This document shows, piece by piece, positions 730-54,679 of a stretch of 64,000 bases of DNA. Below the pieces are notes generated by a model that saw nothing but the letters and a program-made list of their open reading frames with translations, did not search any database and was not told the origin of the DNA. The stretch comes from Neocallimastix sp. 'constans' (Eukaryota). Position numbers and translations under genes: made by a program. Each line of letters starts with the position of its first letter. Within the stretch, counting starts at the first letter, position 1. The stretch spans positions 124,001 through 188,000 of the forward strand of contig JBODTK010000114.1 in NCBI GenBank assembly GCA_050613775.1, read 5' to 3'.

Positions 730-1373
730 TGTAACGGAGGTGCTTCTATTGTAAAGGCGGGATGAGATATAGAAACACAGAAAGGAGAAAACTCAATAGG
801 TTTACACTATCTGTATAAATAATTCGTTTTATTAGAAATATTTTTTATTAATTATAAAATTTAAAATAATTATTAATATTAATCAACAAGGTAATATTTC
901 GAATTACTTATACGTTAATTATTATTAATAAAAGCACGAAGAAAAATATTTTCATTCGTGAAGTTCGCACTATTTATACTTTTAACGGAAAAACAGTTTT
1001 AACATGTAAAAATAATTTTAAAGAAATATTTAGAAATATGTTTGTAATAATTAATAATGTAAAGTTTCTAGAATATAGATTTTAATTGATGAAAATGAAT
1101 CTTATCAAAAAAGAATAAAATAATTTATATAATAAGAATTTCTAAATTCATTTCGGTTGAATTACGAACCGAAAGAATCTTTAACTTTCTATAATTTTAT
1201 ACAGAAAGAATATTCAAGAAGATATTATTAATAATTAATAAAATAATTAATAAAATAATTATTTATGCAAAATGGGTTGAGGTGTGAGTCGAACCCATGA
1301 AGTATTGGTCATGGTCAATGTAACTAACCATTGAACCAAAGTTCTAATTTTACTAACTGAAGATTTCGTTACA
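730..1373 (-). repeat. 3' LTR of element A (644 bp)
   Basis: Near-identical direct repeat of 5992-6618; TG...CA ends; TATAAATA on minus strand at 971-978. Confidence 0.95.
1285..1338 (-). promoter_or_regulatory. Pol III A box/B box (tRNA-like internal promoter) in element A 3' LTR
   Basis: Minus strand TGGTTCAATGG (1338-1328) and GGTTCGACTCA (1295-1285) at tRNA-like spacing. Confidence 0.75.
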
Positions 1374-4150: not shown

Positions 4151-4873
4151 ATTGAAATAAATAAGGTAGAGTAGAATAAGTTTTCAAAGATAAAGAATAG
4201 GCGGTAGAATCCAGAAGTTCCCAAAGTGGTAGTAGAGATTCCAATAATCCAAAAGGTAGTAGATAGGTAGTAGAGATTCCAAAAGTTCAAAAGTTGTTTA
4301 TTGGTAGGTTTCCAAGGTTAATGGATAAGAACACAAAATTTTAATAACACTTTATAATATTTTATAATTAAATATTTTTATTTTATAATTATTTATCAAA
4401 AATTACTGAAATATAAACTAGATTATATAGTATTGGGCCAACTAAATATATAATCTATCAAAGTTTTATACGATAAGTTCCTTTAGCCTTTTAGTGATAA
4501 CGCAGATAAAATCGATTGTTAATGTCTTATAGACAAAAGGAAGTAATATTGTTAGATTCTTTATTATGTCTAACTTATTGTTAGCTGAAAAGAATAAAAC
4601 AAATTATTTTCCCCTATATCAATAGTATCTGAACACTAAAATGTTACGAAAACAGAGACCAACTTCTGTCGCTTTGGAAGTCGTATAAACCTTATATTTA
4701 TATTTTAATCTTTGTTTTCTTAATTATAAAATTATAATATTAATTATAAAATTATTGATTGATAAAATAGAATAGTACTATTGACTCACAACTATAGAAA
4801 AAAACCGTCAGTACTATTATAACTAGTGCCGCGAGTAAGCACGAAATAAAATTTTAAAATACTATATAATTTT

Positions 4874-5991: not shown

Positions 5992-6618
5992 TGTAACGGA
6001 GGTGCTTCTATTGTAAAGGCGGGATGAGATATAGAAACACAGAAAGGAGAAAACTCAATAGGTTTACACTATCTGTATAAATAATTCGTTTTATTAGAAA
6101 TATTTTTTATTAATTATAAAATTTAAAATAATTATTAATATTAATCAACAAGGTAATATTTCGAATTACTTATACGTTAATTATTATTAATAAAAGCACG
6201 AAGAAAAATATTTTCATTCGTGAAGTTCGCACTATTTATACTTTTAACGGAAAAACAGTTTTAACATAAAAATAATTTTAAAGAAATATTTAGAAATATG
6301 TTTAAATAATTAATAATGTAAAGTTTCTAGAATATAGATTTTAATTGATGAAAATGAATCTTATCAAAAAAAAATAAAATAATTTATATAATAAGAATTT
6401 CTAAATTCATTTCGGTTAAATTACAAACCGAAAGAATCTTTAACTTTCTATAATTTTATACAGAAAGAATATTCAAGAAGATATTATTAATAATTAATAA
6501 AATAATTAATAAAATAATTATTTATGCAAAATGGGTTGAGGTGTGAGTCGAACCCATGAAGTATTGGTCATGGTCAATGTAACTAACCATTGAACCAAAG
6601 TTCTAATCTTACTAACTG
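5992..6618 (-). repeat. Main part of element A 5' LTR
   Basis: Matches 730-1359; interrupted after ...ACTAACTG by element B. Confidence 0.95.
6544..6597 (-). promoter_or_regulatory. Pol III A box/B box in element A 5' LTR
   Basis: Minus strand TGGTTCAATGG (6597-6587) and GGTTCGACTCA (6554-6544); element B starts 22 bp from the first A-box base. Confidence 0.78.
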
Positions 6619-12622: not shown

Positions 12623-12934
12623 TGTAACGAATCTTAAAATGTTAAGGTTTTAGAGAATTAAATAAAAATAAAGTAAGGAAACACAAATTTTATTTATTTA
12701 TTTATTATTTTTATTTATTTTATTAATTTTACTTCATGATATTTAAAAATTAGTAGCAAAATTTACAACTATTTATACTTTTTTCAAGGCATAAAAGTTG
12801 TTCTTGCCACTAAATTACATTTTATTTATTTTTTTTTTTATAAAAACTATTAAATTTAAATTGATTTTTATAATTAATTATATAAAATTTAATTATAACA
12901 ATATAAATAAAATACATTTATAATATTAATAAAA

Positions 12935-12977
<43 letters not shown>

Positions 12978-13492
12978 TTATTTATTTAAAAATATCTAAA
13001 ATATTACTAATAAGAATTTATTTAATTGGCTATAATTTTTATTACAATCTGTTAAAATATTCAAATAAAAATAAAAATACTATTCTAATATAAAGGTTTT
13101 TAATAAAATAAAATATTTTTCAATATAAAATAAAACATTTCGATATAAAATTTTATAATAAAAAGTTAAAATATAATATATAAATTTTTAATTATCAATA
13201 TATAAAAATATTATTAATATAAATTTTCATTATTAATATAAAAAAAAATAAGATTTATTATTAATATTGCTAATATAAGTTTTAAATATATAAAAATATT
13301 ACTTTTAATATAAGATTTAATATAAAAATATAAAGTTTAATATAATTTTTGATTTAATTTTTGATCTTTGGATTTAAAAATTTATTAAAGTACAAAAATA
13401 ATAATGTACACATAATGTATTAGAAATAAATCGTAGATTTAATTAAGAATGCATTATTTAGTACATTCTTATCAAGATGCCCCGACGAAGAC

Positions 13493-16400
13493 TCAAGCTT
13501 CTCTGTAAGCGGAGTTAAACTTTACTAAATTTTTAAAGTGAACATTCCTATCGAGTTGCTTTCCAGTCTTCTGATCGATTAGGGTTGCCGTGTTGAATTG
13601 AATTTTTAAAATTTTAAATGGTCCATTGTAATATGGTTCTAGCTTAGTGCGGCTAAAGTTTCTAACAAGAACAAGATCACCAGCCTTTAATTCTTTTCCC
13701 TTTTTCATACTTATTTGTTCTTCTCGTCTTGTTGCCCAATACTTGTTAGCATTCTTCACATTTTCGCATGCTTCTCTAGTCCATTGATAATGACGAACAA
13801 ATTTTTCCATTAAAATTTCATCATATGATTTACCTGCATTTTCAATTGTTCTTATGGCTATATCATAAGGCTGTTGGTCTTCTCTTCCATATACTAATTC
13901 AAAACTAGAATGTCCAGTAGCTGTATTTTTGGTAGTTCGAAGTGCCCATAAAGCAGAAGGTAAAACTTCATCCCAATCTTGATTTTTCCTTCCTAATAAA
14001 CGAAGTAATTTTCCAATTTCTTTATTTCGATTTTCAGTAAGGCCATTTGATTCAGGGTGGTAAGTAGCTACAAATTTAACATATACATCATAAAGATCAA
14101 GAAAGATTTTAGTCATATCAGAAGTGAATTGGACTCCATTATCAGTAGTAATAACTTGAGGGACACCATGTCTTGCAAAAACGTTTATTAAAAATTTAAT
14201 TATATCAGAGGAAGTTATGTTTTCAGTGGGTTCGGCTTCAACCCATTTGGTAAAGTAATCAACAGTTACTATAATATATTGATTATTATTTCTTGTTTTT
14301 GGTAACGGTCCTATAATATCTAATCCTAAATGCACAAAGGGACCCTCCACTTTAGTTGGATGGTTTTCGGTTGGTTCTGGATATGGTTGAGGACGATTTA
14401 ACTGGCATTTTTCACAATTACTAACAATTCTTTTGATATCTTTAATCATATGATTCCAATAAAAGTTTTTCTTAAGTCTTTGATATGTTTTGTAATATCC
14501 TTCGTGGCCAATATTATGAGCTTCTAAAATTAATTTAAACCTTTCATTTTCGTCCGTTATTAATTTTCTATAATTTCCATTGTCGATAAAGTAATCTTCA
14601 CCATCAATAACAGTAAACTTTTCATTAATAAATTCCTTTATAACTTTAGATAATAATTCTTCATTATTTCCATTAGTAATTTTTGTTAATAATATCTTTC
14701 TCTCTTCCTTACTTTTCATTCTTGAAAGAGCATCAGCTAACACATTCTTTTTGCCTGATTCATATTTTATATTAATTCCAAGCATACTAGCGGTTAGACA
14801 CCATCTTGTTTGCCTTGCATTCAAAGGTTCTTTATTCTTAAATAAACCAACTAATGGTTTATGATCTGTGTAAATAGTTGTAGGTAGTGGATTTCCTTCA
14901 ATATAAGATTTAAATTTAGTCATACAGTAAAACAAAGCGGTTCCTTCCAAATCGGTAATACCATAATTCTTTTCAGCTTTCTTTAAACTTCTACTTATAA
15001 AGTGTATTGGATGCTCCTTACCGGTTTCTTCTTCTTTTTGTAAAAGAACTCCACCAATTCCATTATACGAAGCATCAGTTCTAATGATAAAAGGTTTGTC
15101 AAATGACGGAAATTTTAGAATAGGCGCATTGATTAATTTTTCTTTTAGGAGTTCAAAGCTTTCTTGTTGTTCTTTATTCCATTCATATTTAGTATTCTTT
15201 TTCAATAATTTACATAAAGGTGAGGTAATTTGAGCATATTTAGGGATAAAGTCACGATAATACCCTATTGCTCCTAGAAATGATCTTAATTCATGAATTG
15301 ATGAAGGGGCTTCCCACTTCTTAATAGCTGTTATTTTACTTTCCATGGGACTTAATCCTTTAGTAGTAAGTTTGTGACCTAATACATCAACTTCAGTTTG
15401 AAGAAAATGGCACTTTTCAATATTAATTTTTAATTTGTTTTCTTTAAATACTTCTAATACTTGTTTAATATGAATTAAATGTTCTTCGATACTTTTTGAA
15501 TAGATCAAAACATCATCAATAAATACGTAAACAAATTCACCAATAAAAGGGAATAAAATTTTATTCATTTCTCTTTGGAAGGTTGAGGGAGCTCCAGTAA
15601 GTCCAAAAGGCATAACCTTAAATTGATAATTTCCAAACTTAGTAGTGAAAGTGGTTACTTCAACGCTTTCTTCATCCATTAAGATTTGGTGAAAACCAGA
15701 AAATAAATCAAGAGTTGTAAATATTTTAGCTCCTCCGAGACTATCAAAAATTTCATCTATATATGGAACTGAATAAGAATCTTTTTCTGTCATATCATTG
15801 ACTTTTCGGTAGTCAATGCACAAGCGCCACTTTCCATTGTGTTTTAGAATAAGTACTACTGGAGATGACCATTCTGAACAGGATGGTTCTATCAATCCTT
15901 TCTTAATAAGTTTTGTAAGTTCTTCTTTTAAGATATCTGATTTTAATTTAGTTAACCTATAACTTCTTAATTTTACTGGCTTTGCATTTGCTTTTAAACG
16001 GATCTTATGTGGTGAAAGTTTAGAAGGAGTTAGTTCTTCTGTTGAAGTGGCAACTATGTCAATCATTTCTTTGAGAATTTTAATAATTTGTTCTTTATAA
16101 TCTTTATTTAAGGTACTTAAAAATTCATCACTCTCAATAAATTCCATTGGAGTTAATTCCTTTATAATTTCCTTTTCATTATTCGTTTCTTTAACTTTTC
16201 TAATAGTGCAAATTATACTTTCTTCATCATAATATTGATTATTTATTTTAGCTATTTCTTCGTATTCACTTTCTGACAAAAGTTTACATAAACTGTTTAA
16301 GGTCGGATGAATAAATAAACAATGATCGATTTGAGTTTTAAAGTTTATTAACATATCATAAAAAGAGTCTTCTTTCTCAATAATTCTAAAGTCCGCATTA

Positions 16401-17497
16401 AATTCATAATTATTAATTTTTACTGGTAATCGAACAATAATTCCTTCCGAGTATTCTTCATCTTGTGTTGCTAGTTGGATTCTTCCACGACTTTTTCCAA
16501 CTGTTTCATATTCACCAGGTAATTTATCAAAATACTGCTTAGTAACGATGCTTAGGTTACTACAAGAATCAATTAAAAGTTTTCCTAGTACTCCGTCAAC
16601 ACTTGCATCAACCATTGCTAAGTCTTCTTCGGCTACTTCATTACTTTTACTTATGTAGCTATGATCATAGTTATTTACTAATAAAGTTCGTGCTATTACA
16701 TTGTCTACAGTCCCAATTATTTTAGACTTTTCTAACTTTAAACCTTGAGTTAATTGTGAACGAATTTTCGGACATGCATTCAAGAGTTGACCTATCGTAA
16801 TACTGGATTTAAGATTATTTAAATCATCCATAATATTGTAAGGTTCTTTATTATTCATCATTTTAATATTCCTTTTTACTAACTGAGTATTTCCATTATT
16901 AGTTTCTTTAGTTTTTGTTGAAATTAATTTTTCCAAAGTATTAGTTTTATTTTGTTGATTATCTTTATTCATTTCTAGATCTTCTATTTCATTATCGATT
17001 ACGAGTATATCTTCAGATTCAACTTTTTCCTTTCCTTTTGATGAATAATTGTTGTTTTCTTCTTTACTTTCTCTTACTCTTGTTATTTTTCTTAATTCCT
17101 TTTCTTTTTGTTTTTCTTTGTTAATATTTGGTTGAGTTAAAATTGAAGGAAGTATTTGATTTTTATAAACTTTATTTGGTTTATTATGTAGCTCATTTTC
17201 TTTCTTCTTTCTTAAAGCAGGAGTTGCGAAAGGACGTGGATTATCTTTTAAACTTTTATGTACTTTCTTGGAATTATTTTCTTCTTTTTCGCTGTTATTA
17301 TCATTCATTTTTCTTTTTATAGCATTTATAATGATATCATCCTCACTTTCAGTTGTGTCACTAAAATCAGATTCTTCAGATTCTTCATTAAAGGAATTAT
17401 TATCAATTGGAGTATTCTTAGTAAAAGTATTATTTTGTAAATTATTTAATGAAGCTATTGTTTTGTCATTGGGAGTGCTTCTGCTCCCATTTAGAAG
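13493..17497 (-). CDS. pol: Pol of element C (protease, RT, RNase H, integrase), reached by -1 frameshift
   Basis: LIDSCS, WRLCIDYRKVN, FIDD, RTDAS, HHCC finger, LDIIGP..TDNG..E core, GPF motif; slippery TTTAAAC at 17503-17497 plus hairpin 17488-17471. Confidence 0.93.
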   Translation of the reverse strand, partial: LLNGSRSTPNDKTIASLNNLQNNTFTKNTPIDNNSFNEESEESDFSDTTESEDDIIINAIKRKMNDNNSEKEENNSKKVHKSLKDNPRPFATPALRKKKENELHNKPNKVYKNQILPSILTQPNINKEKQKEKELRKITRVRESKEENNNYSSKGKEKVESEDILVIDNEIEDLEMNKDNQQNKTNTLEKLISTKTKETNNGNTQLVKRNIKMMNNKEPYNIMDDLNNLKSSITIGQLLNACPKIRSQLTQGLKLEKSKIIGTVDNVIARTLLVNNYDHSYISKSNEVAEEDLAMVDASVDGVLGKLLIDSCSNLSIVTKQYFDKLPGEYETVGKSRGRIQLATQDEEYSEGIIVRLPVKINNYEFNADFRIIEKEDSFYDMLINFKTQIDHCLFIHPTLNSLCKLLSESEYEEIAKINNQYYDEESIICTIRKVKETNNEKEIIKELTPMEFIESDEFLSTLNKDYKEQIIKILKEMIDIVATSTEELTPSKLSPHKIRLKANAKPVKLRSYRLTKLKSDILKEELTKLIKKGLIEPSCSEWSSPVVLILKHNGKWRLCIDYRKVNDMTEKDSYSVPYIDEIFDSLGGAKIFTTLDLFSGFHQILMDEESVEVTTFTTKFGNYQFKVMPFGLTGAPSTFQREMNKILFPFIGEFVYVFIDDVLIYSKSIEEHLIHIKQVLEVFKENKLKINIEKCHFLQTEVDVLGHKLTTKGLSPMESKITAIKKWEAPSSIHELRSFLGAIGYYRDFIPKYAQITSPLCKLLKKNTKYEWNKEQQESFELLKEKLINAPILKFPSFDKPFIIRTDASYNGIGGVLLQKEEETGKEHPIHFISRSLKKAEKNYGITDLEGTALFYCMTKFKSYIEGNPLPTTIYTDHKPLVGLFKNKEPLNARQTRWCLTASMLGINIKYESGKKNVLADALSRMKSKEERKILLTKITNGNNEELLSKVIKEFINEKFTVIDGEDYFIDNGNYRKLITDENERFKLILEAHNIGHEGYYKTYQRLKKNFYWNHMIKDIKRIVSNCEKCQLNRPQPYPEPTENHPTKVEGPFVHLGLDIIGPLPKTRNNNQYIIVTVDYFTKWVEAEPTENITSSDIIKFLINVFARHGVPQVITTDNGVQFTSDMTKIFLDLYDVYVKFVATYHPESNGLTENRNKEIGKLLRLLGRKNQDWDEVLPSALWALRTTKNTATGHSSFELVYGREDQQPYDIAIRTIENAGKSYDEILMEKFVRHYQWTREACENVKNANKYWATRREEQISMKKGKELKAGDLVLVRNFSRTKLEPYYNGPFKILKIQFNTATLIDQKTGKQLDRNVHFKNLVKFNSAYREA

Positions 17498-18402
17498 TTT
17501 AAAGACTTTTTGGAATATATTTCTTTTTTATTTTTTTCCATAATCTTATTTAATTGAGGGCAATAGTATGAGTAATGACCTTCTTCCTTACAGAAGAAGC
17601 AAGTTTTAACAGATAAATTTCTCATTTTCTGGGTTGATTCTTCTATAATATCTTGAGGTTTCAGTTTATTATTTGTTTGACTTGTTTGGAAAGTTTCGTT
17701 TCTTCTTTTAGGATAAAGTCTTGAAGTAGTACTGTTTTGATTATTTTGATTATGCTGGGAATTATTAACATTATAGGTATTAATATTATTGTTCCTTACA
17801 GAAAGTCTATCTACTTTCTCGGCAATTTTGAAAGCTTTCTCCATACTTATATCATCTTTAAGGGATAATTTCTTCCAGGCTTCATAATTATTTTGAATAG
17901 AATCAATATAATCTAGTACACCAATGCGCTTTCTTCTCTTTTTATCAAGTTTAGTGTACAAAGTTCTATATCTTACATTAAAGTCTTTAATCTTTTCGTT
18001 TCTTTTAATTCGCATTGCACGAAGTTCTTTAAGAAGTAAATTTTGGTCTTCTTTAATACCGTAAAAATTTTCAAGACTTGAAATAATTTTTCCAAGAGAA
18101 GGAAATTTAATATCATCATCAACATTTTCTTCTTCATCATCTTCTTCTTCTTCATCTGATGAATCATCACTTTCATCATCACTATCTTCTCCCAAATCTT
18201 CAATAACGCGTTGTACTTCACCAGAGCTGGTAAGTAAACAAGCATTAAATATTGTTTCTGGATCTGTAATACCTTGTATCTTGATCCAAAGTTTTAATTC
18301 AGTAGCCCAGGACTTAATATCTAAATTGTCCTTGCTAAGTTTCAAAATATCTCTTAATTCTTTTTTCAATTCTTTAAAGCTCAAAGTTGTTTCCTTGGAC
18401 AT
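17491..18402 (-). CDS. gag: Gag of element C
   Basis: Zinc knuckle CFFCKEEGHYSYYC; similar to B Gag (IKDFNVRYR versus IKNFNWRYK); acidic D/E tract. Confidence 0.9.
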   Translation of the reverse strand: MSKETTLSFKELKKELRDILKLSKDNLDIKSWATELKLWIKIQGITDPETIFNACLLTSSGEVQRVIEDLGEDSDDESDDSSDEEEEDDEEENVDDDIKFPSLGKIISSLENFYGIKEDQNLLLKELRAMRIKRNEKIKDFNVRYRTLYTKLDKKRRKRIGVLDYIDSIQNNYEAWKKLSLKDDISMEKAFKIAEKVDRLSVRNNNINTYNVNNSQHNQNNQNSTTSRLYPKRRNETFQTSQTNNKLKPQDIIEESTQKMRNLSVKTCFFCKEEGHYSYYCPQLNKIMEKNKKEIYSKKSLNF

Positions 18403-18560
18403 TTTGTCTAAATATGAGGTGATTAAATACGAATAAATTTGGGAAATCCAACTTTCAAAATATAATTTAATAGGTAATTTAATATCGAATCAATTTTTAA
18501 AACAATATATTTTAGTAACTTTTGAAAATAATAATTTTATTTGCTTTCTTTAGTAGATAT

Positions 18561-18870
18561 AAGCTCGAAATCCTTATCGACAACTTAGTAGAAATTATAA
18601 AGCACGAGGTTCTTTTCGACTACTTTATTAAGAATAATTTTTAAGTTCGAAATCTATATCGACAACTTAATAGAATAATTTTTAAGTTCGAAATCTTTAT
18701 CGACAACTCAATAGAATAATTTTAAGTTCGAAATCTTTATCGACAACTTAATTGAATAATTTTAAGTTCGAAATCTTTATCGACAACTCAATAGAATAAT
18801 TTTAAGTTCGAAATCTTTATCGACAACTTAATAGAATATTTTTCAAGCTCGAAATCTTTATCGACCACTT
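18561..18870. repeat. About 40-bp tandem repeat (7-8 copies) in element C 5' UTR
   Basis: Unit AAGTTCGAAATCTTTATCGACAACT(T/C)AATAGAATAATTTT. Confidence 0.9.
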
Positions 18871-19450
18871 GAATTTTGTAATTTAGTATATTTGTAGTAA
18901 TAAATTTAGAAGCAAAGTTTTATTTATTATTTTCATCTTTCAAAAAATTTTTCTTTTTAAACGATAAATATTGTATTATTATAGCTAATAAAATTATTAA
19001 TTAATTATAATTATTAAATACAAAAAATAATCTTTATTGTCGTACAATCTGATAGTACACACTGTCTGACGTGCAGCTTACCTAATGGTGTCATGCCACG
19101 CGTGTGCCACGATTACTATATTCAATATAAAATATAGCAGTTCAGAGCCCACTAGCCCAATTACTATGTAGGATAAACTTAATCCGATAATCTATGTACG
19201 GAATAAAAATAAATTTTAAAAGTATTCAATAATATTTTTATTAACTAATAAAAATTAACTAAAAACACAATATTTTCAAAGTAAATTAAGATTCTTTTAC
19301 AGGAATTATTAAACAAATAAAGTATCAGTAATAAAAAAAAAATAAAAAAAATTTAAATGGCGAAGTTAGCCAAAGTCTGATACTTTATATAATAAAGTGC
19401 CTTATAACTAGCACAAAGAAAAGTAAAAAAAATATATATATAAAAAAAAC

Positions 19451-19680
19451 AATCTTACGCCTTCGGTGACGTAAGCTCCTTATTCGCCAGTGCTTGGAAA
19501 GTACCCGCACCTTCGTGTGTTGAAACGTTGAAGGCTGAACTATTATTACCGGGTCGGTAACCAAATACCTTCGTCTACTTTCCAATTAATCTCCAAATTA
19601 ACTACTATTCAATAACCTACTATGAATAGAGTTAATTTGTTGCTATCTGAGAATACACTGTGTATGAGCTCTATCCGCTC
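19451..19680 (-). ncRNA. Structured 5' UTR motif in element C
   Basis: Sense GAGCTCATACACAGTGT ... GCACTGGCGAATAAGGAGC-TTACGTCACCGAAGGCGTAAG; internal stem TTGGAAAGTA/TACTTTCCAA. Confidence 0.65.
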
Positions 19681-19870
19681 CTTGTTATAATTTTACAAAA
19701 TTTGTTTTTTTAGAATCTTAATTTTACTTATTTAAAAAAAATTTTTTTTATATATATATCAAACAAGCGCCATAGGTTAATCAAAGGATTAACGACTTAC
19801 TTGTTTATCAATATAAAATAAAAAAAAATTAAAAAAAAATCTATGTTATTTACTATTATTTCTATTTAAT

Positions 19871-19888
19871 TCCCCGATATCTCCACCA
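19871..19888 (-). promoter_or_regulatory. tRNA primer-binding site of element C (probably tRNA-Ala)
   Basis: Minus strand TGGTGGAGATATCGGGGA, 6 nt from the LTR; complement ...TCTCCA-CCA resembles tRNA-Ala 3' ends. Confidence 0.8.
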
Positions 19889-20189
19889 TATAAATGTTAA
19901 GGTTTTAGAGAATTAAATAAAAATAAAGTAAGGAAACACAAATTTTATTTATTTATTTATTATTTTTATTTATTTTATTAATTTTACTTCATGATATTTA
20001 AAAATTAGTAGCAAAATTTACAACTATTTATACTTTTTTCAAGGCATAAAAGTTGTTCTTGCCACTAAATTACATTTTATTTATTTTTTTTTTTATAAAA
20101 ACTATTAAATTTAAATTGATTTTTATAATTAATTATATAAAATTTAATTATAACAATATAAATAAAATACATTTATAATATTAATAAAA

Positions 20190-20231
<42 letters not shown>

Positions 20232-20750
20232 TTATTTATTTAAAAATATCTAAAATATTACTAATAAGAATTTATTTAATTGGCTATAATTTTTATTACA
20301 ATCTGTTAAAATATTCAAATAAAAATAAAAATACTATTCTAATATAAAGGTTTTTAATAAAATAAAATATTTTTCAATATAAAATAAAACATTTCGATAT
20401 AAAATTTTATAATAAAAAGTTAAAATATAATATATAAATTTTTAATTATCAATATATAAAAATATTATTAATATAAATTTTCATTATTAATATAAAAAAA
20501 AATAAGATTTATTATTAATATTGCTAATATAAGTTTTAAATATATAAAAATATTACTTTTAATATAAGATTTAATATAAAAATATAAAGTTTAATATAAT
20601 TTTTGATTTAATTTTTGATCTTTGGATTTAAAAATTTATTAAAGTACAAAAATAATAATGTACACATAATGTATTAGAAATAAATCGTAGATTTAATTAA
20701 GAATGCATTATTTAGTACATTCTTATCAAAAAAATTAGAAATTAGAATGC

Positions 20751-20804
20751 TGGCATAGTGGTTAGTCACTATGACCTCAGCCTGAACCACTAGGGTTCGA
20801 CTCA
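20751..20804 (+). promoter_or_regulatory. Pol III A box/B box in element D 5' LTR
   Basis: TGGCATAGTGG (20751-20761) fits TRGCNNAGYGG; GGTTCGACTCA (20794-20804); T-run follows; element C ends 23 bp before the A box. Confidence 0.82.
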
Positions 20805-21363
20805 CACCTTTACTAAAATTTTATATCATTTAAATTTTAAAAGAATTTTTATACTTCATTTCTGTATTTGTTTCTGTATTTGTTTCTGTATAAATTTCTG
20901 TAAAAAATTAACAAAAGAAATTCTTAGAAATTAATAGAAACAAATCAGATAGAAATTCTATTTTAATTTATCTTTTATCATTATTTCTTTTAGATTCTTT
21001 TTAACCGAAAATAATCAATTTTTATGAAACTTTTTAATGATTTTATGGTTTTAAATTTTTATGGATTTAAATTTTGAAAAACTATAAATAGGAGTGAATT
21101 TCGCAGCCAAAAGATTTTAAATATTGTGTTTTTATTAATTATTAAATTAATTAATAAGTAATTCGAAATATTACAATAATTAATCTTTATAATTAATATT
21201 TTTAAATTTCTTAATTAATAAAACTATATTTTAAAAAACCAAATTACTTATTAATCAAAAAGTGCTTACCTATTGTGTTACACTCTTTAAAACACGGATA
21301 TTCCAATATTCGTTACAATAAAAACACCACTAAACTAAGCACAATACCTTTGCACTTTTACTC

Positions 21364-21730
21364 TTTTTGGAACCCCGTTAAGGAATCCCATTTTCTACTA
21401 CTATTTTTGGAACCCCGTTAAGGAATCCCATTTTCTACTACTATTTTTGGAACCCCGTTAAGGAATCCCATTTTCTACTACTATTTTTGGAACCCCGTTA
21501 AGGAATCCCATTTTCTACTACTATTTTTGGAACCCCGTTAAGGAATCCCATTTTCTACTACTATTTTTGGAACACCGTTAAGGAATCCCATTTACTACTA
21601 TTCTTTTTTGGAACCCCGTTAAGGAATCCCATTCTCTACTACTCTTTTTGGAACCCCGTTAAGTAATCCCATTCTCTATTACTCTTTTTGGAACCCCGTT
21701 AAGGAATCCCATTTTCTACTATTTTTGAAA
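21364..21730 (+). repeat. 40-bp tandem repeat (about 9 copies) in element D 5' UTR
   Basis: Unit TTTTTGGAACCCCGTTAAGGAATCCCATTTTCTACTACTA. Confidence 0.93.
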
Positions 21731-22282
21731 CCACTTACCAAGACTATAAATTTCTCTACCAAAATTCATGCACGAATTTATAAATTCAATCGGAACCCTT
21801 GAATTTTACTATATATTAAAATTATTAATATTTTCAATAATCCATATAACCATCCTTGAAATTAAAATTATTTATATTGAAATTAAATATTTACTTCTTC
21901 TAATAATTAATTATATTGTATATTTATTATTCAATCAAAATTAATGATTATAATAACTAAAAAAAAAAAAAAAAAAAAAAAAAATTAGTAATAATTAATA
22001 TTTAATAATTAATATTTAATAATTAATAATAATAATTAATAATCAATAATTAGTAATAATTAATAGTAATAATCAATATTCAATAATTAGTAATAATTAA
22101 TAGTAATAATCAATATTCAATAATTAGTAATAATTAATAGTAATAATCAATATTCAATAATTAGTAATAATTAATAATAATAATTAATAATAATTAGTAA
22201 TAATCAATATTTAATAATTAATAATAATTAATAATAATTAATAATTAATAATTAATAATTAGTAATCAATAATTAGAATTAA

Positions 22283-26503
<4,221 letters not shown>

Positions 26504-26571
26504 ATATAAATCATTTAATCAAAAATAAATTTTATTTCATCAAAGTACTATTAATCATTCTAACTTATGAT

Positions 26572-26602
<31 letters not shown>

Positions 26603-26825
26603 TTATTTTATATTATTCAAAAACATTTATTCTAAGATAGTTTTATTTTTATACTTTATTTTTAAAACTTAAAATTCATGTAATTTTTATTATCCAATGT
26701 ATTAATTAAATTATCACTCCTATAAGTATTTTAGTTATAGTTTATTATTATAAAAGTTAGAATTAGAAATAGTTTAGATTTAAAGCAAAAGATTCGTCTG
26801 GCATCCGAATCCTAGAGGAGGACCA

Positions 26826-27427
26826 TGTAACGAATCTTAAAAAATTAGAAATTAGAATGCTGGCATAGTGGTTAGTCACTATGACCTCAGCCTGAACCAC
26901 TAGGGTTCGACTCACACCTTTACTAAAATTTTATATCATTTAAATTTTAAAAGAATTTTTATACTTCATTTCTGTATTTGTTTCTGTATTTGTTTCTGTA
27001 TAAATTTCTGTAAAAAATTAACAAAAGAAATTCTTAGAAATTAATAGAAACAAATCAGATAGAAATTCTATTTTAATTTATCTTTTATCATTATTTCTTT
27101 TAGATTCTTTTTAACCGAAAATAATCAATTTTTATGAAACTTTTTAATGATTTTATGGTTTTAAATTTTTATGGATTTAAATTTTGAAAAACTATAAATA
27201 GGAGTGAATTTCGCAGCCAAAAGATTTTAAATATTGTGTTTTTATTAATTATTAAATTAATTAATAAGTAATTCGAAATATTACAATAATTAATCTTTAT
27301 AATTAATATTTTTAAATTTCTTAATTAATAAAACTATATTTTAAAAAACCAAATTACTTATTAATCAAAAAGTGCTTACCTATTGTGTTACACTCTTTAA
27401 AACACGGATATTCCAATATTCGTTACA
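26826..27427 (+). repeat. 3' LTR of element D (602 bp), with A box 26861-26871 and B box 26904-26914
   Basis: Matches 12623-12639 + 20729-21317. Confidence 0.95.
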
Positions 27428-28509: not shown

Positions 28510-29677
28510 GCTTAGGGGTGGCATTATGTTACGGAACAAATAAAATAATTAAAATTATATATAATTATTAAAGATTAAAAATTATTAATATTAGTGGAAT
28601 TAAATAATTAATATTAAAATATTAAAATAATTATAAATCTAGTTATAATAAATTAGAAAATGTATTAATTATTATCTTTATTTAATATTGTAATACTTAA
28701 TAATATTTTAATAGTTTATTATATTTTATTATTATATTTTATTATTAAATTTTTATTATTAAATTTTTATTATTAAATTTTTATTATTAAATTTTTATTA
28801 TTAAATTTTTATTATTAAATTTTTATTATTAAATTTTTTTAAATTTTTATTATTAAATTTTTATTATTAAATTTTTATTATTAAATTTTTATTATTAAAT
28901 TTTTATTATTAAATTTTTATTATTAAATTTTTATTATTAAATTTTTATTATTAAATTTTTATTATTAAATTTTTATTATTAAATTTTTATTATTAAATTT
29001 TTATTATTAAATTTTTTTAAATTTTTATTATTAAATTTTTATTATTAAATTTTTATTATTAAATTTTTATTGTTAAATTTTTATTATTAAATTTTTATTC
29101 TAATCCAATCAAATAACTATTCTAAATGTATAAAAAGAACAAAGTAGTACAATACTTTAGTTCTCTCTCTTTTTCTTACAACTTTATTATTATATTATTC
29201 TTTTGATATTTTCGAGTTTAAATGATAAATTTAGATAGTTAAAATAAAATTAGTTTAAATAATTAAATTTAAATAGTTTAAATAATAAATTAGTATAGTT
29301 TAAATAATAAAGTTAGAATAGATTAAATAATAAAAATAAAATAGTTTATTTTAAATAAAGTTAGAATTAAAAATAATTTAAGTTTTGTATTAAGTGTTTA
29401 AAGGTTTTTAGTGTTTGGTTAATAGTTTTAATAATTATAGTTGTTAGTTAAATTATTTATATTAAGTTATATTAATTTTGAATAATTTATTTTAGTTTAA
29501 ATTGTTTAGTATTTAGATTTTTAAATTAGAATAATAGATTAGAATAATAGAATCGAATTTAAAATTTTCTTTAATTATTAGAATATATTATTTTATGATA
29601 AAAATTCTTCAGTTCTGTACCAACTGAAGTGTAAGAAATATAGAAATATTTTCTATATTTCTTAGTCTAAATATAAA

Positions 29678-31263
29678 TGTCAAAGTTTTAAGATAATTTG
29701 GTCTTAACGATTAGGTCAAGATGCCAAATTATAGTAATTAATTACTAATTTAATTTTATTCTTATTTAATACATATTGTTATTAGTAAATTTTATAATTT
29801 AATTTTTATTTAAAATATAAATTTTATTTAATCTTAATAATATTTTATTACATTATTATTTTATATAATTATTACTATAATTTAAATTACAATAATCCTA
29901 CAAAGGATTAATCAAAAGAATTTAAACATGTATTTATATAAAATAATTAATTATTAAAATATTAATTATTAATATGAATATGTAAATAATATTAATATAA
30001 GTTTGATATTGATAATATAAAATTAGATAATAATATAAATATTTAATATAAATAAAATATAAGAATCAAATATTGCTAAATATTATAATTTATAATTAAA
30101 ATATAATATGTAGAAATTAATTTAATATGACAATCACGTGTTTACATTATTTAATATATATTAAATTCAATATGTTAATAATATTTAGTAATTAGTTGGC
30201 CTAGACTAATTCCTAAATATTTTAATAAAGTTAATTTAATAATAATTATTATATTATTATTATTTATTAATATTGAAATTCAAATAACTGAATTATCGAA
30301 ATTGAAATTGAATTGAAATTCAGTTATTATCTTAACAATGCCCTTCCACAAAAATCGGATTCCAGACGATTTGTGTAACATTGTTAAAAAAAATTTTGTT
30401 AAGTTATTAAAAAAAATTTTTAATTTTTTAAAGTTAATTAGGAATTAAAAGGTCACTTGAATCTTTAGGAGAAGACCTTTTAAGTGACAATTTCATGAAA
30501 TTTGAAATTTGTCAAAATTTGTTAAAATTAAAATTTTATTATAAAATTCAATGTTTTTAAATATGATGGTACCAACATTATTATATATTTCCTTGTAAAA
30601 TTTTGAAATTGAAATTTTGAAATTTAATTGAAATTAACATTTCAATTTTTACCATTAACTTTGAAATTATTGAAAATTTTAAAAATATACTAAATAATAA
30701 ATATATAAAAATATAAAATTACTATTAAATAGTTGAATATTTGATTTTTATTAAATTTTGAAATTTCGTAATGTCGAAATTTGAAATTTTAAAATTTTTA
30801 ATTTTTAATTTTCTAAATTCTGAAATTGTAATTGAAAATTTTATCAATTTAATTATTGAATATATTTTATCAATATAATTTATTGAATATATTATAATAT
30901 TCAATTTAAAATATTATTAATCTTGATAATTATGAAAGCGTCCTTATCATAATTATCATTTTATCATCAAAGAATATTATAGAGAAAAGCGTCCTTTTCA
31001 ATATAATATTAAGCAAATTTTAATTAATCTATTAAATTTCAAATATTGAATCAATTTAGAATGCTCCTCCTTCCTTCTTTCATATTATTATTTTTCTATG
31101 ATTAATTCAGAAATTTAAAATTTAATAAGTTTAATGTAATTTTGCTATTTATAAATTTATAACTGATGTTTAAAAGTAAATTATTATTGCAATTCAATCG
31201 AAGAGAATATTTATTTATTTGTTTAAAATATAGAATTGATTGATTTTATGTAATAGAAATTTA

Positions 31264-31294
<31 letters not shown>

Positions 31295-33114
31295 AATATT
31301 TAAAATTTAAATTATAAAATTGTATATATTAGTATATAACATTTTTGGAATTTTAACGATTGTTTTAAGAAATATAATTTTGTTTATTTTTTGAATAATT
31401 TGTAATTATTACTTTTGTAATACAGTATTTAAAATGAATAAATTTTACTTAAACTTTTAATATAGAAATTAAAAATTGACTTTAATAAACGATATAATGT
31501 TTGATTAAATTGTAAAAATATTTTAATAAAAAGCGAGACATGAGGATTATAAGAGTAGTACAGTGCAGTATAAGTAGTTTAATGAATAAATTAATTATTA
31601 TTTATTGAAATTCATATGTTATATAGTTCTTATTCCCATGATAGGGAGGAGAGAAGTCTGATTCATGTGAATTTACCTTTATCTTTGTTTCTTTGAACTT
31701 TTGAATAACTTTTTGTATAACTGGGGTGTTAATTACTGTAACTGATACTCTTTTATGAATTTTTTCATTGTTGTTTGAAGTGTGGGATGTAGGTTTTGGT
31801 TTGGTTCTTCGTTTAGGCTTTCTTCTTAAGGTTAGTTTAGTTTCTACTTTTGCTTCCATGTTAGTTATCCTTTTATTGTTATTATCGTTATTGTTATTAT
31901 CGTTATTGTTATTATCATTATTGTTATTGATTAGATGATTATCACACTGATATGGGTTTTCAATATTTTCTTTTTTGTTATGGCTAACTTCAGCTTTTTT
32001 GTATAAGCTTATATCGTGAATTTTATCATCAGCATTATTCTTCATTTCATTAATACCTTCTTTTTGTTTCGTACATGATTTTGGTTCTATATAATTTAAG
32101 GACCTATTAACTTGGACAAGGAATAAGGAACTTCTTCTACGTAATTGTTCCAATAAATTAATTTGATTTATAATGTCCTGACAAGTTTTACTTTCTAAAG
32201 AATTTTCTTCCTTCAACTGTTTTACTTTTGATTTAAGGACGTGAATAAGTTTTTGAATTCTTATTAATTCGTCCAATCGATCATGAAGTTCTTTCTCAGC
32301 CTTACCAATAAACCTGTTATATTCACTAATGGGAATCATATCTTCTTTATCCTTCATTGGGTTAGATATATCATTTCTTTTAAATGATATATCTGAAGTA
32401 ATTTTTATAACTTTAGGCATCTTAAGGTAATCGATAGATTGTTGGTAGGATTATTGTTAAAGTTTTAAGATAATTTGGTCTTAACGATTAGGTCAAGATG
32501 CCAAATTATAGTAATTAATTACTAATTTAATTTTATTCTTATTTAATACATATTGTTATTAGTAAATTTTATAATTTAATTTTTATTTAAAATATAAATT
32601 TTATTTAATCTTAATAATATTTTATTACATTATTATTTTATATAATTATTACTATAATTTAAATTACAATAATCCTACAAAGGATTAATCAAAAGAATTT
32701 AAACATGTATTTATATAAAATAATTAATTATTAAAATATTAATTATTAATATGAATATGTAAATAATATTAATATAAGTTTGATATTGATAATATAAAAT
32801 TAGATAATAATATAAATATTTAATATAAATAAAATATAAGAATCAAATATTGCTAAATATTATAATTTATAATTAAAATATAATATGTAGAAATTAATTT
32901 AATATGACAATCACGTGTTTACATTATTTAATATATATTAAATTCAATATGTTAATAATATTTAGTAATTAGTTGGCCTAGACTAATTCCTAAATATTTT
33001 AATAAAGTTAATTTAATAATAATTATTATATTATTATTATTTATTAATATTGAAATTCAAATAACTGAATTATCGAAATTGAAATTGAATTGAAATTCAG
33101 TTATTATCTTAACA
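29678..33114 (-). mobile_element. Element G: 3.4-kb non-autonomous LTR element related to H
   Basis: 660-bp LTRs 29678-30337 and 32455-33114; 5-bp TSD ATAAA at 29673-29677 and 33115-33119; PPT GGAAGGG on minus; no pol. Confidence 0.94.
31602..32420 (-). CDS. Orphan 272-aa protein (N-terminal coiled coil, Asn-rich and basic C-terminus) at the gag position of element G
   Basis: Intact ATG ORF starting 35 nt inside the 5' LTR boundary, sense to the element; no capsid, knuckle or pol motif recognised. Confidence 0.7.
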   Translation of the reverse strand: MPKVIKITSDISFKRNDISNPMKDKEDMIPISEYNRFIGKAEKELHDRLDELIRIQKLIHVLKSKVKQLKEENSLESKTCQDIINQINLLEQLRRRSSLFLVQVNRSLNYIEPKSCTKQKEGINEMKNNADDKIHDISLYKKAEVSHNKKENIENPYQCDNHLINNNNDNNNNDNNNNDNNNKRITNMEAKVETKLTLRRKPKRRTKPKPTSHTSNNNEKIHKRVSVTVINTPVIQKVIQKFKETKIKVNSHESDFSPPYHGNKNYITYEFQ

Positions 33115-33986
33115 ATAAATTTTATTAATTACAAATTAATCTAAATATAAATTTTATTAATTAAAAAATTAAAATACGTAAGTATAATAATATTAAATAT
33201 TAAAAAATAATAATAGAATTTTCACAAATACAATTATGTTTAAAATTTAAAATTCTTCTAAATAATTTCCACAATAATATTAAATAATAAATAAATTAAA
33301 ATTAATATTTAATATTCTAAAATTATTTTCACAATAATATTAAATAATAATTAAATTAAATTAAATAATAAATTTCTTTGAAATAATTCGTTCTAATTTA
33401 ATACAATTAAGAAAATCTTCAGGTTTTTCTGCTAGTCTTTTCCTGAAGATACAACAGCTGACTAGCAAACAATAGCTTAATTAAGAAATAATTAATATAT
33501 TATATTAAATAATTATTAATTAAATAAACACATGAAAAATAAATAATAATAATTAATTAATTAAACAGACACATGATAAAAAAAAAAATAATAATAATAA
33601 ATAAATATAAAATAAGATTAATTAATAAATAAAAAAGTATAAAATAACGATTGATTTCTGTTTTTTCAGAGATCAAGAGTTATTATTATTAAAAATATTA
33701 ATAAAGATAAATATTAAAAATAATAATAACCTAAAATTTAAAGTTTAAAATTTTTTTTAATAAAATTTTGTGTTTTAAAAACTTATTTTTATATACGAGT
33801 CTTCTACTTTTTCTAATTTTCGTCTATTTAAATATAAGTATTTTTCTTTATTTTTTTTTAATAATAAACTCAATCAATATAAAAAATAAACTCTTATAAA
33901 AAATTTCTTTTTATTAGAGTTTCTTACAATAATAACTCTTCTTTTATATATAATAATTTTATATATAATAATAATTATAGTTAAAA

Positions 33987-34034
<48 letters not shown>

Positions 34035-34094
34035 ATTATAATTTTTATAAAAATTATATTATACTCTATACATTCACTTTATTTTTATTTCATA

Positions 34095-37000
34095 ATGAAT
34101 ATTAATATTGCAGGTACTTCAGAAAACAATGGAAATAATGACATTTCCATTTCAAAAAATAAGCCGGATGAAACATCAAAGTTAATTTCAACTATTACGG
34201 AATATATTCCAACCTTCTTCTCACCCAATGGCATACTAACACAAGAAAAAGAAAATGAAAATAACTTGAATATGATAGAAATTATTAGCCAATGTGAGCT
34301 CTTTTTCCATGACCACCCGAATTCTTTTACTGCTGAAGAAAGTAAATGTTCTTTTTTAATTCACAAATTACAAGGTCCTTCAAAAAAATGGGGTTTATCT
34401 CTTAAGGAAGAAGGGATTCTTCAAACACTTGGATATGAGAAATTTAAAGAATTACTAATCAACAATTTTGGTGATAGCAAAGAACAGAGGTATTCTCTTA
34501 TTGAAAAACTATTAAATTTAAGACAAAGGACCCTTGGAAAGGCAGCCTTTTATACTATAGAATTTAGAAGGCTTGCCAAAAGAATTGGATGGAATGATGG
34601 AGTCTACATTGACTTAATAAGAAGAGGACTCCTAGAAGAAGTTCAAAAAGAATTTGATAAAGCCGAACGGCCTTCTAACTTATTTGAAGCTACTAATTTG
34701 ATTATCACATTGGATAAGAAATGTTATTTGGAAACCAACCTAAAGTCTAAAGATAAAAGTCCTAAGGATACCTATCACAAAAGGAAATTCTCCGAATCCA
34801 AAAGGAGTGAATATAGAAATAAAAATTATCAGAAATATAAGAAAAGTAAAATTGATAATCTATTATCAGCAAATTTCACTCCTAACAAGAAAAATATGAT
34901 GACCTCCACTTTTTTATTAGTAGTCAACAATGATAAAATTAAAATTAAATTATTAATAGATTCTGGCTCTTCCAGAAGTTTCATTTGTCAAAATTTCGTT
35001 AAAATAAATAAGATTCCGTATTCTGGTCTACCATCTCCTGTTAACATTCAACTACCAAATGGAAAATCTATGAATATTAAGTATGTGACTAAACCTCTTA
35101 AACTCAGCTTTATGGATCACCATGAAACATTTGAATTTAATATTGCCAGTTTACAACTCCAAGGAATTACTGGAATTCTAGGAAGAGATTGGCTTAACAA
35201 ACATAAGCCCTATATAAATTTTGAAAAAAATACTATTTACTTCTTAGAAAAGTACTGTGCAAAACATTGTGATTCAGCAAAAGGGAATAAATTTATCTTC
35301 CATTCTAAAGATTTCACTGCTTCTATGGTCCCTGACGATACAATTGTCTACGATAATCTTCTTAATGAAGAAAATGATGTAGATCTTTGTGCTGCTTTAC
35401 AAGAAATCCCTATTGAACGTACTAAAGAACAAAGCATTGAAACAAAAAAAGAAATTGTTGAAAAATATTACTTCAATTTAAAGAAAACATTTGAGAAAAA
35501 AGAAGCCGACAAATTGCCACCCCACAGAAATTATGACATGTCTATAGATTTAATCCCAGGAAGTCAACTATACTACGGTCCAATATATTCTTTATCCATC
35601 ACAGAAATGAAAGCCTTAAAGGAATATATAAATGAAAATTTAAATAAGGGATTTATTCGGAAGTCGAATTCACCCGCTGGTGCTCCAGTTCTCTTTGTAA
35701 GAAAACATGATGGGACGTTAAGACTTTGTGTTGACTATCGCAAGTTGAATTCAATTACTATTAGAAATAGTTACCCTATACCAAGGATAAATGATCTTAT
35801 TGAATCCTTCCAGGGTGCGGTAATTTTTACACGTCTGGATCTCAGATCAGCATACAATTTAATAAGAATACGAGAAGGACATGAATATTTGACGGCGTTT
35901 AGGACTCCCATAGGACATTACGAATACTTAGTAATGCCGTTCGGGCTAAGAAATGCACCTTCAGTCTTCCAACACTTTGTACAGGATATATTCTCTGATG
36001 TTATTGGAAGATTTGTTCAAATCTACTTGGATGATATTATTATTTATTCTAAAAGTAGTAAAGAACATACAAGTCATGTTTCCCTCATATTGAGTAGGCT
36101 AATAGAAAATGGATTATACGCAAAATTAGAAAAGTGCGACTTCCATGTCCAGGAAACAAATTTCTTAGGATTCAGAATCTCTTCTAAAGGACTTATTATG
36201 AATGAAGATAAGCTGAAATCTATTCTAGAGTGGCCCGTTCCAAAAAATCTCAAGGAACTTCAAAGCTTTCTTGGCTTATGCAATTTCTATAGGAGGTTTA
36301 TAAAAGACTTTGCTCAAATCATGGAGCCACTCAGAAAATTATTAAAAAAGGATAATCAGTACATATGGAATGAGAAAGCCGATGAAGCATTTACTAGGTT
36401 AAAAGAATCCTTCAAAAGTAACAAACTCCTTATTCATCCTGACCCAGATAAAGAATTCATTGTAGAAACAGATGCAAGTGACTTCGCCGTTGGATGTATC
36501 TTGTCTCAAAAAAGTGAAGAAGATAATCAGCTTCACCCAGTAGCATTTTATTCTAGATCCATGACCCTAACTGAATCTAATTATACTTTATATGATAAAG
36601 AGCTTTTAGCTGTCATAACCGCATTAGAAGTGTGGAGACATCACTTGGAAGGTTCAAAGCTACCAGTTCAAATTATAACAGATCATAAAAACTTACTCTA
36701 TTTCAAAAAACCTCATCACTTAAACCAAAGACAAATAAGATGGGGTTTATTTCTCTCAAAATTTGATTACAGAATATCATATAGATCTGGAGAAAAAAAC
36801 AGCAGACCAGATGCACTTTCCAGGAGACCAGACTACAAGGAATTGCAAGATGGTAAAAAATCTATCAAAACAACTCTTTTAAAAGAAGAAGATTTCTGTT
36901 GTACTACTATAGAAAATATTAACAAATTGATAGAAGCTCAGAAAAAAGACAAATATTGTAGAGATATTTTCTCAAAACTAAAAAATAAAGACTCCCAATT

Positions 37001-38156: not shown

Positions 38157-39411
38157 AGAGATTTTCACAAAAATCTTTTCTAAAGGGAGCAATGTAAGAA
38201 ATATAGAAATATTTTCTATATTTCTTAGTCTAAATATAAATTTTATTAATTACAAATTAATCTAAATATAAATTTTATTAATTAAAAAATTAAAATACGT
38301 AAGTATAATAATATTAAATATTAAAAAATAATAATAGAATTTTCACAAATACAATTATGTTTAAAATTTAAAATTCTTCTAAATAATTTCCACAATAATA
38401 TTAAATAATAAATAAATTAAAATTAATATTTAATATTCTAAAATTATTTTCACAATAATATTAAATAATAATTAAATTAAATTAAATAATAAATTTCTTT
38501 GAAATAATTCGTTCTAATTTAATACAATTAAGAAAATCTTCAGGTTTTTCTGCTAGTCTTTTCCTGAAGATACAACAGCTGACTAGCAAACAATAGCTTA
38601 ATTAAGAAATAATTAATATATTATATTAAATAATTATTAATTAAATAAACACATGAAAAATAAATAATAATAATTAATTAATTAAACAGACACATGATAA
38701 AAAAAAAATAATAATAATAAATAAATATAAAATAAGATTAATTAATAAATAAAAAAGTATAAAATAACGATTGATTTCTGTTTTTTCAGAGATCAAGAGT
38801 TATTATTATTAAAAATATTAATAAAGATAAATATTAAAAATAATAATAACCTAAAATTTAAAGTTTAAAATTTTTTTTAATAAAATTTTGTGTTTTAAAA
38901 ACTTATTTTTATATACGAGTCTTCTACTTTTTCTAATTTTCGTCTATTTAAATATAAGTATTTTTCTTTATTTTTTTTTTAATAATAAACTCAATCAATA
39001 TAAAAAATAAACTCTTATAAAAAATTTCTTTTTATTAGAGTTTCTTACATGAAGATTTCGTTACAGTAATTAAAATAAATTTATATTGATAACGAAAATT
39101 TTAATAACTAATTAAATAGATTTGATTATTTTCAATATAACATAATACAAAAGAAATATAATATTAATATATTAAGTGGGCAAGGACAATATTCTTGGCT
39201 AAAGATTTTTAATACATTATATGGAATCGGATCAATAATTCAAAAAGGAATTATAAGTTAATTGGTGATTTATTAACTTAAGATTTCTATTTAGTAATAT
39301 TTGAAGAATATTGGAAAGTTCCAATTATATAGAATAGAATAATCTATAAGGTTAGAATAATTTATATTATTCTAGCACAATTAGTATTATTTATTCATTC
39401 TGTATTAAAAT

Positions 39412-43766: not shown

Positions 43767-43780
43767 ATTAAGAAAGAACT

Positions 43781-48155: not shown

Positions 48156-48187
<32 letters not shown>

Positions 48188-48193
<6 letters not shown>

Positions 48194-51889: not shown

Positions 51890-52083
51890 AGATTCAGAAG
51901 TTAATTTTTGAATTTTTTCATTTTTAATTGAAAAATTATTTAAGAATTTAATAGGAATATAAGATTTGAATAAAAGGAATGTAGATGGGAGATTTGATTC
52001 ATTGATTGAATCAAGTGTAGGAAAATTATAATAAATTGTTTTTAAATTTTTTGATGTTCTGGACTCCTTTTGAAGCCCATCAA

Positions 52084-54640: not shown

Positions 54641-54679
<39 letters not shown>

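Follow-up and report, generated by a model that had tools for sequence, protein, structure and literature searches.

In the 64-kb stretch of DNA analysed here (the window), several retrotransposons lie at a few recurring distances upstream of tRNA-type A and B boxes, some at a tRNA gene and others inside the LTRs of chromoviruses. The question that this locus raises is whether the boxes in these LTRs act as targets for tRNA-targeting elements, as the original prediction held, or whether they are bystanders in a pile of repeats. The window is a strongly AT-rich stack of Ty3/gypsy LTR retrotransposons. The closest named relatives are JGI Orpsp1 models (51% to the C pol and 68% to the D pol), which we take to be from Orpinomyces, and 17 of the 20 sequencing runs that contain this DNA are animal faeces metagenomes. 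On these grounds, an anaerobic gut fungus (Neocallimastigomycota) is the likely host. The features are collected in Table 1.

Table 1. Features of the window that are discussed in the text (positions are those of the window; distances are counted from T8)
Feature	Position	Strand	Remarks
Chromovirus A	730-39065	-	Deletion derivative of the D clade; 5-bp TSD GTAAT
A 3' LTR	730-1373	-
A and B boxes, A intact 3' LTR	1285-1338	-	No insertion upstream
A 5' LTR, split in three	5992-6618, 29627-29629, 39055-39065	-
A and B boxes, A 5' LTR	6544-6597	-	T8 at 6597 (LTR nt 36), box spacing 43, both equal to D
Element B	6619-29622	+	C clade; 4-bp TSD ACTG; U3 end 22 nt from A T8
Chromovirus D	12623-27427	+	Inserted in B pol; 5-bp TSD TTTAT; identical LTRs
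D 5' LTR, split	12623-12639 and 20733-21317	+	C inserted after LTR nt 17
Element C	12640-20728	-	tRNA-type PBS; 4-bp TSD AAAA; U3 end 23 nt from D T8
A box, D 5' LTR	20751-20761	+	T8 equivalent 20751 = LTR nt 36
B box, D 5' LTR	20794-20804	+	43 nt after T8
D single ORF, 1404 aa with chromodomain	22289-26503	+
D 3' LTR, intact	26826-27427	+
A and B boxes, D intact 3' LTR	26861-26914	+	No insertion upstream
Element F	29630-39049	+	Self-priming, chromovirus lineage; 5-bp TSD TGAAG; 25 nt from A T8 after removing B
Element E	29678-33114	-	Non-autonomous, inside F LTR; 5-bp TSD ATAAA; 73 nt from A T8 after removing B
Old F-like LTR enclosing G (tentative)	46236-54329	+	TSD imperfect, GTCAA/TACAA
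Element G	46882-54281	-	Self-priming; 5-bp TSD TATTA; 73 nt from tRNA T8 after removing solo C
Solo LTR, family C	54336-55161	-	4-bp TSD CAAA; 23 nt from tRNA T8, 15 bp upstream of mature 5' end
Intron-containing tRNA gene, read as Ile-UAU	55177-55269	+	T8 55184; internal reference target

Six elements, A to F, form a nested pile at 730-39065. B and F split the 5' LTR of A, E lies within the first LTR of F, D sits in the pol of B, and C lies within the 5' LTR of D. Around the tRNA gene there are G, a solo LTR (J) inside the LTR of G, and the solo C LTR. The TSDs are perfect in 9 of the 11 elements whose ends could be set, the exceptions being element I and the old F-like LTR. They are 4 bp long for B, C, the solo C LTR, and J and 5 bp long for A, D, E, F, and G. 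All six insertions close to boxes (C, the solo C LTR, B, F, E, and G) have perfect TSDs, and A, D, and I are located away from A and B boxes.

The elements that carry the boxes, A and D, are chromoviruses. D is an autonomous element of 6.7 kb with an intact ORF in the Ty3/gypsy order gag-PR-RT-RH-IN, based on Pfam. A shares 61 to 72% identity with D in protein and 67% across the LTR, and it is without the D residues from about 530 to 1114. Its one open ORF (1706-4183) holds gag, the protease region, and the chromodomain; relative to D, the RT, RNase H, and integrase together lack about 585 residues. From its sequence, A is a recent in-frame deletion derivative. The C-terminal chromodomain (PF00385) is found with E values of 9e-18 in D and 6e-18 in A, and there are HP1-family matches as well. 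Both LTRs have a TATA box followed downstream by an 11-nt self-priming complement, about 370 to 400 nt beyond the boxes. As far as the accessible part of PMC4600332 describes them, fungal Tf1/sushi chromoviruses such as MAGGY resemble A and D in the C-terminal chromodomain, the self-priming PBS, and the 5-bp TSD; A and D differ from them in that their U3 contains a conserved unit of Pol III boxes. A and D also share a nearly identical GC-rich motif, about 45 nt long, that takes in the PPT and the sequence immediately before it (26790-26834 and 1365-1409). This motif is partly common to E and G and also to further families in four runs, and when it was compared with prokaryotic genomes, all 28 matches were unrelated bacterial sequences. 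The 5' leaders of D (21319-21759) and C (18560-18880) contain arrays with a period of 40 to 41 nt that are unrelated to each other.

Both boxes that had been predicted in the D LTR, at 20751 and 20794, are present. One correction concerns the start of this LTR: the D 5' LTR begins at 12623, before the C insertion, and 20729-20732 is the second TSD copy of C. A relaxed scan of the 64-kb window for A plus B boxes, with an A-box consensus and the B-box consensus given in PMC5391098, returned five pairs, namely, the two D LTRs, the two A LTRs, and the tRNA gene. One hundred shuffles gave a mean of 0.19 pairs and a maximum of 3. The four pairs in LTRs represent only two independent families. T8 is at LTR nt 36 in both A and D, the boxes are 43 nt apart in both, and the two sequences are identical over 17 of 17 bases around the B box, while the spacer is alike at 12 of 26 positions. 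All four differences in the A box fall on degenerate positions (P of about 0.045, given the A-box consensus used). The unit has a GC content of 43 to 52%, compared with 17 to 20% in the remaining LTR. In the tRNA gene the spacing is 64, with an insertion of about 20 nt. The first T4 run after the B box is at LTR nt 104 in D and 102 in A, which is weak evidence in AT-rich DNA. Because of these positions, the predicted transcript would be nearer 80 to 90 nt than the roughly 75 nt proposed originally. Contigs were identical across both D boxes in three of the four runs compared (X5, X2, and X12). Contigs covering the boxes were absent for X4 and X5 in the comparison of the C/D junction and present for X5 at the D 3' LTR start; these records were filtered, and the gap is uninformative. 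The LTR sequence available for three more distant chromoviruses, L030, L031 (only about 55 nt), and L032, contained no boxes.

Two other interpretations of the unit were discarded. It is not a tRNA or a pseudo-tRNA, as there is no cloverleaf fold, neither ARAGORN nor Rfam finds a tRNA match on the LTR units, and the T-stem is broken (2 of 5 pairs in D and 3 of 5 in A, against 5 of 5 in the tRNA gene). A role in driving the genomic RNA, as proposed for Helenus, was rejected because a T4 run closes the unit and because the LTR contains a TATA box and a self-priming start of its own. It is thus unlikely that the unit makes genomic RNA, which would instead come from this separate Pol II start.

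The tRNA gene serves as the reference. That a real tRNA gene is present at this locus, as the original prediction stated, was confirmed with ARAGORN and with the Rfam tRNA model (57 bits). ARAGORN gave no assignment, and the identity as an intron-containing tRNA-Ile(UAU) is our reading of the Rfam alignment. Upstream of the gene there may be older layers. The end of the old F-like LTR would lie 25 nt from T8 and, by arithmetic, a B-like 3' LTR end would lie at about 21 nt; both are tentative, because the TSD of the F-like LTR is imperfect and its whole-LTR score against F is not above that of shuffles, the shared blocks being 33 nt at 91% and 89 nt at 78%. The solo LTR J (53685-54065), inside the 5' LTR of G, has a 4-bp TSD (AATG) and no A or B box near it. 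It is possible that J is an off-target or a non-targeting insertion, and if it belongs to the clade of C and B, targeting is not strict.

Distances were counted from T8 up to the base of the inserted element that lies closest to it. The distances of C, the solo C LTR, and B need no reconstruction, those of F and E were measured without B, and that of G was measured without the solo C LTR. The values 23 and 73 are each seen twice, once at an LTR unit and once at the tRNA gene. For C (end at 20728, T8 at 20751, 22 bases between) and the solo C LTR (end at 55161, T8 at 55184), our counts are the same as those in the original prediction. The two insertions also agree in orientation, with the U3 end toward the boxes, and in having 4-bp TSDs, as had been noted. 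Under a null of uniform insertion along the host element, the probability of landing no more than 1 nt away from the corresponding distance at the tRNA gene is about 0.0005 to 0.001 each for C, B, and E, calculated post hoc. The values 25 and 73 are valid only if F and E were inserted before B and G before the solo C LTR. The divergence between LTRs (5 substitutions in 1,091 nt for B, 3 of them outside a microsatellite; 0 in 855 for F; 1 in 660 for E) is not in favour of F and E preceding B, with a conditional P of 0.05 when all five B substitutions are counted. As T8 is at nt 36 in both LTR families, a distance to T8 inside an LTR is inseparable from a distance to the LTR end, and only the tRNA locus and E separate these two reference points. 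An insertion is present in both 5' LTRs of A and D (2 of 2) and in neither 3' LTR (0 of 2), numbers too small for a test. All of this positive evidence comes from one window with one real tRNA gene. Within that scope, the same distances are found at the LTR boxes and at the tRNA gene, and these repeats are therefore likely to be mobile landing pads.

The inserted elements do not form a single tRNA-targeting clade, as had been assumed. In a tree of 43 rows (a quick version, with the careful search unfinished and with Ty3 and DGLT-A outside it), F and G group with the chromoviruses of the A/D type, and C and B form a separate clade on a long branch. F had been counted together with C and B; this grouping was rejected, as F is self-priming and belongs to the chromovirus lineage in the tree. 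A self-priming complement of 13 nt is present in F, G, and E, and none comparable was found in B and C. The LTR of E is related to that of G, with similar ends and pre-PPT motifs. Given that F and G self-prime and group with A and D, and that C and B stand apart, there are apparently three lineages (C/B, F, and E/G) at the same two kinds of target. E (31602-32450) has only a 282-amino-acid ORF without a Pfam match; it has LTRs that are 1 base apart and self-primes like G. No Chromo domain match was found in C, B, F, or G, and their tails did not score above shuffles against the D chromodomain; a recognisable chromodomain in G was rejected on these grounds. The match to the Ty3-G Gag-Pol is 360 bits for C and 507 bits for D. 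C is thus less Ty3-like than D, and for this reason the Ty3 mechanism cannot be transferred to C by descent.

Could the start of any LTR, AT-rich and in open chromatin or bound by integrase, be a general hot spot for nesting, with the boxes as bystanders? The insertion sites of B, C, and F all lie at LTR nt 12 to 18, which is what such a hot spot would give. LTR-like starts are also seen 3 nt past the end of C in contigs of X4 and X1 (see below), which means that LTR ends without boxes also have close neighbours. Against this, 23 and 73 recur at the tRNA gene, the site of E would fall outside the A LTR, and none of the six other families with paired LTRs in the window (B, C, E, F, G, and I) has an insertion at nt 12 to 18. 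We consider the hot spot improbable. We think much the same, with marginally less inclination, of the idea that the unit is bound by TFIIIC alone, as an untranscribed ETC-like site or boundary, and that the targeting elements recognise TFIIIC or its chromatin. The missing cloverleaf and the poor T-stems are in line with this idea, but the A box is conserved, the spacing is tRNA-like, and a T4 run is present in both families. Moreover, according to the accessible parts of these papers, Ty3 integration depends on both boxes and on TFIIIB and does not use sites bound by TFIIIC alone (PMC5911963), and a B box by itself attracts TRE5-A poorly (PMC5391098), although these are other elements.

The numbers are small, two of the reconstructions need an order of insertion that LTR divergence does not support, and the TSD of the old F-like LTR is imperfect. 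One may therefore ask whether the distances match by chance and were made exact by removing inner elements post hoc. This is very unlikely, as C and the solo C LTR (23 and 23) and B (22) need no such removal, the single-event probabilities given above are low, and six of six TSDs are perfect. It is harder still to believe, to the point that we give it hardly any weight, that the integrases of C and B read a DNA sequence that the start of the LTR has in common with the region upstream of the tRNA. The two TSDs of C are alike at three of four bases, and for that reason the argument made originally, that AAAA and CAAA differ, is weak on its own. The stronger argument for the claim it was meant to carry, that position is set by distance rather than by sequence, is that the 30 nt upstream of T8 match the tRNA flank at only 9 positions in D and 10 in A; the TSD of B is ACTG. 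The targets of E and G share no sequence beyond AT richness either, and relative to these targets the two elements face in opposite directions.

The preferred reading therefore remains that the boxes in the A and D LTRs are landing pads. As at a tRNA gene, TFIIIC and TFIIIB are likely to be loaded on them, and each A or D LTR copy would thereby become a target for tRNA-targeting retrotransposons. C, B, and F would integrate approximately at the Pol III start site, 14 to 17 bp upstream of the equivalent of tRNA position 1, and E and G about 65 bp upstream of it, past the TFIIIB footprint. The original idea of a landing pad is supported further by the A family, which has the same box geometry, by the distances of B (22) and F (25), and by the matching distance of E and G (73 each); it has lost the notion that one clade is attracted. 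The further claim, that the boxes explain much of the nested pile, holds for four of the six elements at 730-39065 (B, C, E, and F) but not for A or D.

Why an autonomous chromovirus would keep such a unit is a matter of speculation. A tDNA can act as a barrier. Boundary activity has been noted for TFIIIC sites (PMC3159450), and chromodomains direct integration to H3K9-methylated chromatin (PMC4600332), in the accessible parts of both papers. It is conceivable, although we are not convinced, that the chromovirus retains it as a barrier of the tDNA type, protecting its Pol II promoter in the heterochromatin to which the chromodomain targets the element. Its role as a landing pad could then be a cheap side effect of the barrier: insertions into the 5' LTR would leave promoter and progeny intact, and they would cost little because the 5' U3 is not copied into progeny. 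The complete reading is a gut-fungal autonomous chromovirus with a working Pol III promoter as heterochromatin barrier at its LTR edge, used by three independent tRNA-targeting lineages at 22 to 23, 25, and 73 nt. Taken as a whole, it is somewhat more doubtful again, and we offer it tentatively.

Each component has a counterpart among known systems, here compared on the basis of the accessible parts of the cited papers. DGLT-A integrates at a mean of 15 bp upstream of mature tRNA, and DGLT-A of D. lacteum integrates at 55 to 65 bp (PMC5006619). Tj1 of S. japonicus is self-priming, targets Pol III genes, and makes a 5-bp TSD (PMC4600332). Counted from the position-1 equivalent, C and B at 14 to 15 bp and F at 17 bp resemble Ty3 of S. 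cerevisiae, DGLT-A of Dictyostelium, and Tj1 (PMC5911963, PMC5006619, PMC4600332), and E and G at 65 bp resemble the D. lacteum element (PMC5006619). F and G self-prime as Tj1 does, whereas the TSD of C and B is 4 bp, unlike that of Tj1 (PMC4600332). In contrast to Ty3, DGLT-A, and Tj1, the target here is also found inside the LTR of another retrotransposon, three distance classes occur on the same targets, and C and B form their own long-branch clade. Dada is different in that it targets by sequence (PMC8869645). TRE5-A integrates at bare A and B box motifs, with the A box setting the distance (PMC5391098). Its insertions on the Dictyostelium rDNA palindrome resemble our case in that boxes without tRNA context are targets and in that the insertion distance reads out Pol III factor binding, but there the boxes belong to rDNA instead of a mobile element, and TRE5-A is of the non-LTR type (PMC5391098, PMC3159450).

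The other counterpart is found in Helenus, Ajax, and Cassandra (TRIMp3), where Pol III boxes also lie within the LTR, in both copies (PMC10886601). These elements are non-autonomous and shorter than 1.3 kb, and their promoter is proposed to make their own genomic RNA (PMC10886601). D is autonomous and 6.7 kb long; its TATA box and self-priming start lie apart from the unit, which ends at a T4 run. Of the tRNA-like sequence in TRIMp3 LTRs, A and D have the boxes but no tRNA fold or Rfam match. In the accessible part of PMC10886601, not a few Repbase LTRs are said to contain tRNA-like pieces, and the LTR unit is not described there as a target for other elements. Each feature has thus been published on its own: tRNA-type boxes within an LTR for Helenus, and integration at bare A and B boxes for TRE5-A. 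A literature search, whose coverage excluded most subscription journals, Repbase reports, and supplements such as Table S1 of PMC10886601 (which may list autonomous LTR elements with tRNA-like pieces), did not turn up an autonomous chromovirus that carries such a unit. Within the same coverage it found no LTR-borne Pol III unit acting as a target and no paper on tRNA-targeting elements in anaerobic gut fungi. The arrangement in A and D is a new combination of known parts that rests on one locus.

Targeting of tRNA genes is usually a safe-haven strategy that is bounded by the number of Pol III genes in the host, and this bound would be lifted if a retrotransposon spreads such targets. If the complete reading is true, the target set of tRNA-targeting elements would be mobile and self-amplifying, and it would be steered to heterochromatin by the chromodomain of another element. 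Ordered nesting, with the chromovirus first and the tRNA-targeting elements afterwards, would be a predictable route to repeat piles in large AT-rich fungal genomes, and the presence of a Pol III promoter in an autonomous LTR would have an explanation that can be tested. Insertion distances would also report, at no extra cost, on the binding of Pol III factors in an organism for which genetic tools are scarce. Even if the barrier idea is dropped, anaerobic gut fungi would be added to the few hosts in which LTR elements target tRNA genes.

We also looked for further loci. In contigs aligned to the start of the D 3' LTR, no clear new insertion at LTR nt 12 to 18 was seen among the 24 loose ends listed of 63; these are mostly blends and come from related families that have the pre-PPT motif and the start of the LTR in common, and partial A-box-like motifs occur in some of them. 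Behind the end of C, none of the 24 loose ends listed of 201 had a tRNA start at +16; they are AT-rich and mostly blends of several contigs. The C U3 end had no match in metagenome contigs. Viral contigs gave no match to the C pol and none to the box pattern, and the 64 distant relatives (25 to 33%) that they gave against the D alignment looked non-fungal and were left out of the analysis. In a scan of metagenomes with the D-clade alignment, generic RT patterns were used on 5 of 64 parts, and 80 loci were kept. Four of these look gut fungal by similarity and AT content, the closest being L029 (69%), which is without PPT or LTR. A strict scan of the 80 loci for A plus B boxes gave three pairs, at two distant loci outside the D clade: these are the tRNA-like pairs near distant Ty3/gypsy elements at L072 (minus strand, about 5610 and 5779) and L097 (16668). 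Behind the U3 end of C (20728-20731), an LTR-like start follows after 3 nt in one contig of X4 and two contigs of X1. The one in X4 resembles the LTR start of L030, and a blend in X5 has the same motif in register. These starts would fit a later insertion with a 5-bp TSD, as further stacking at the 25-nt position.

The remainder of the window contains other remnants. At 56002-57275 there is a small non-coding LTR element with LTRs of about 175 nt in an (AAT)n microsatellite, for which no clean TSD was found. At 41073-45433, a C-like pol on the minus strand and a B-like pol on the plus strand, both without their 5' halves, are joined back to back near 43772-43790, either by a deletion or by an assembly join. 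An ORF at 59853-60491, which has no Pfam match, ends in a copia-type RNase H-like start that was recognised by eye and is probably a copia remnant.
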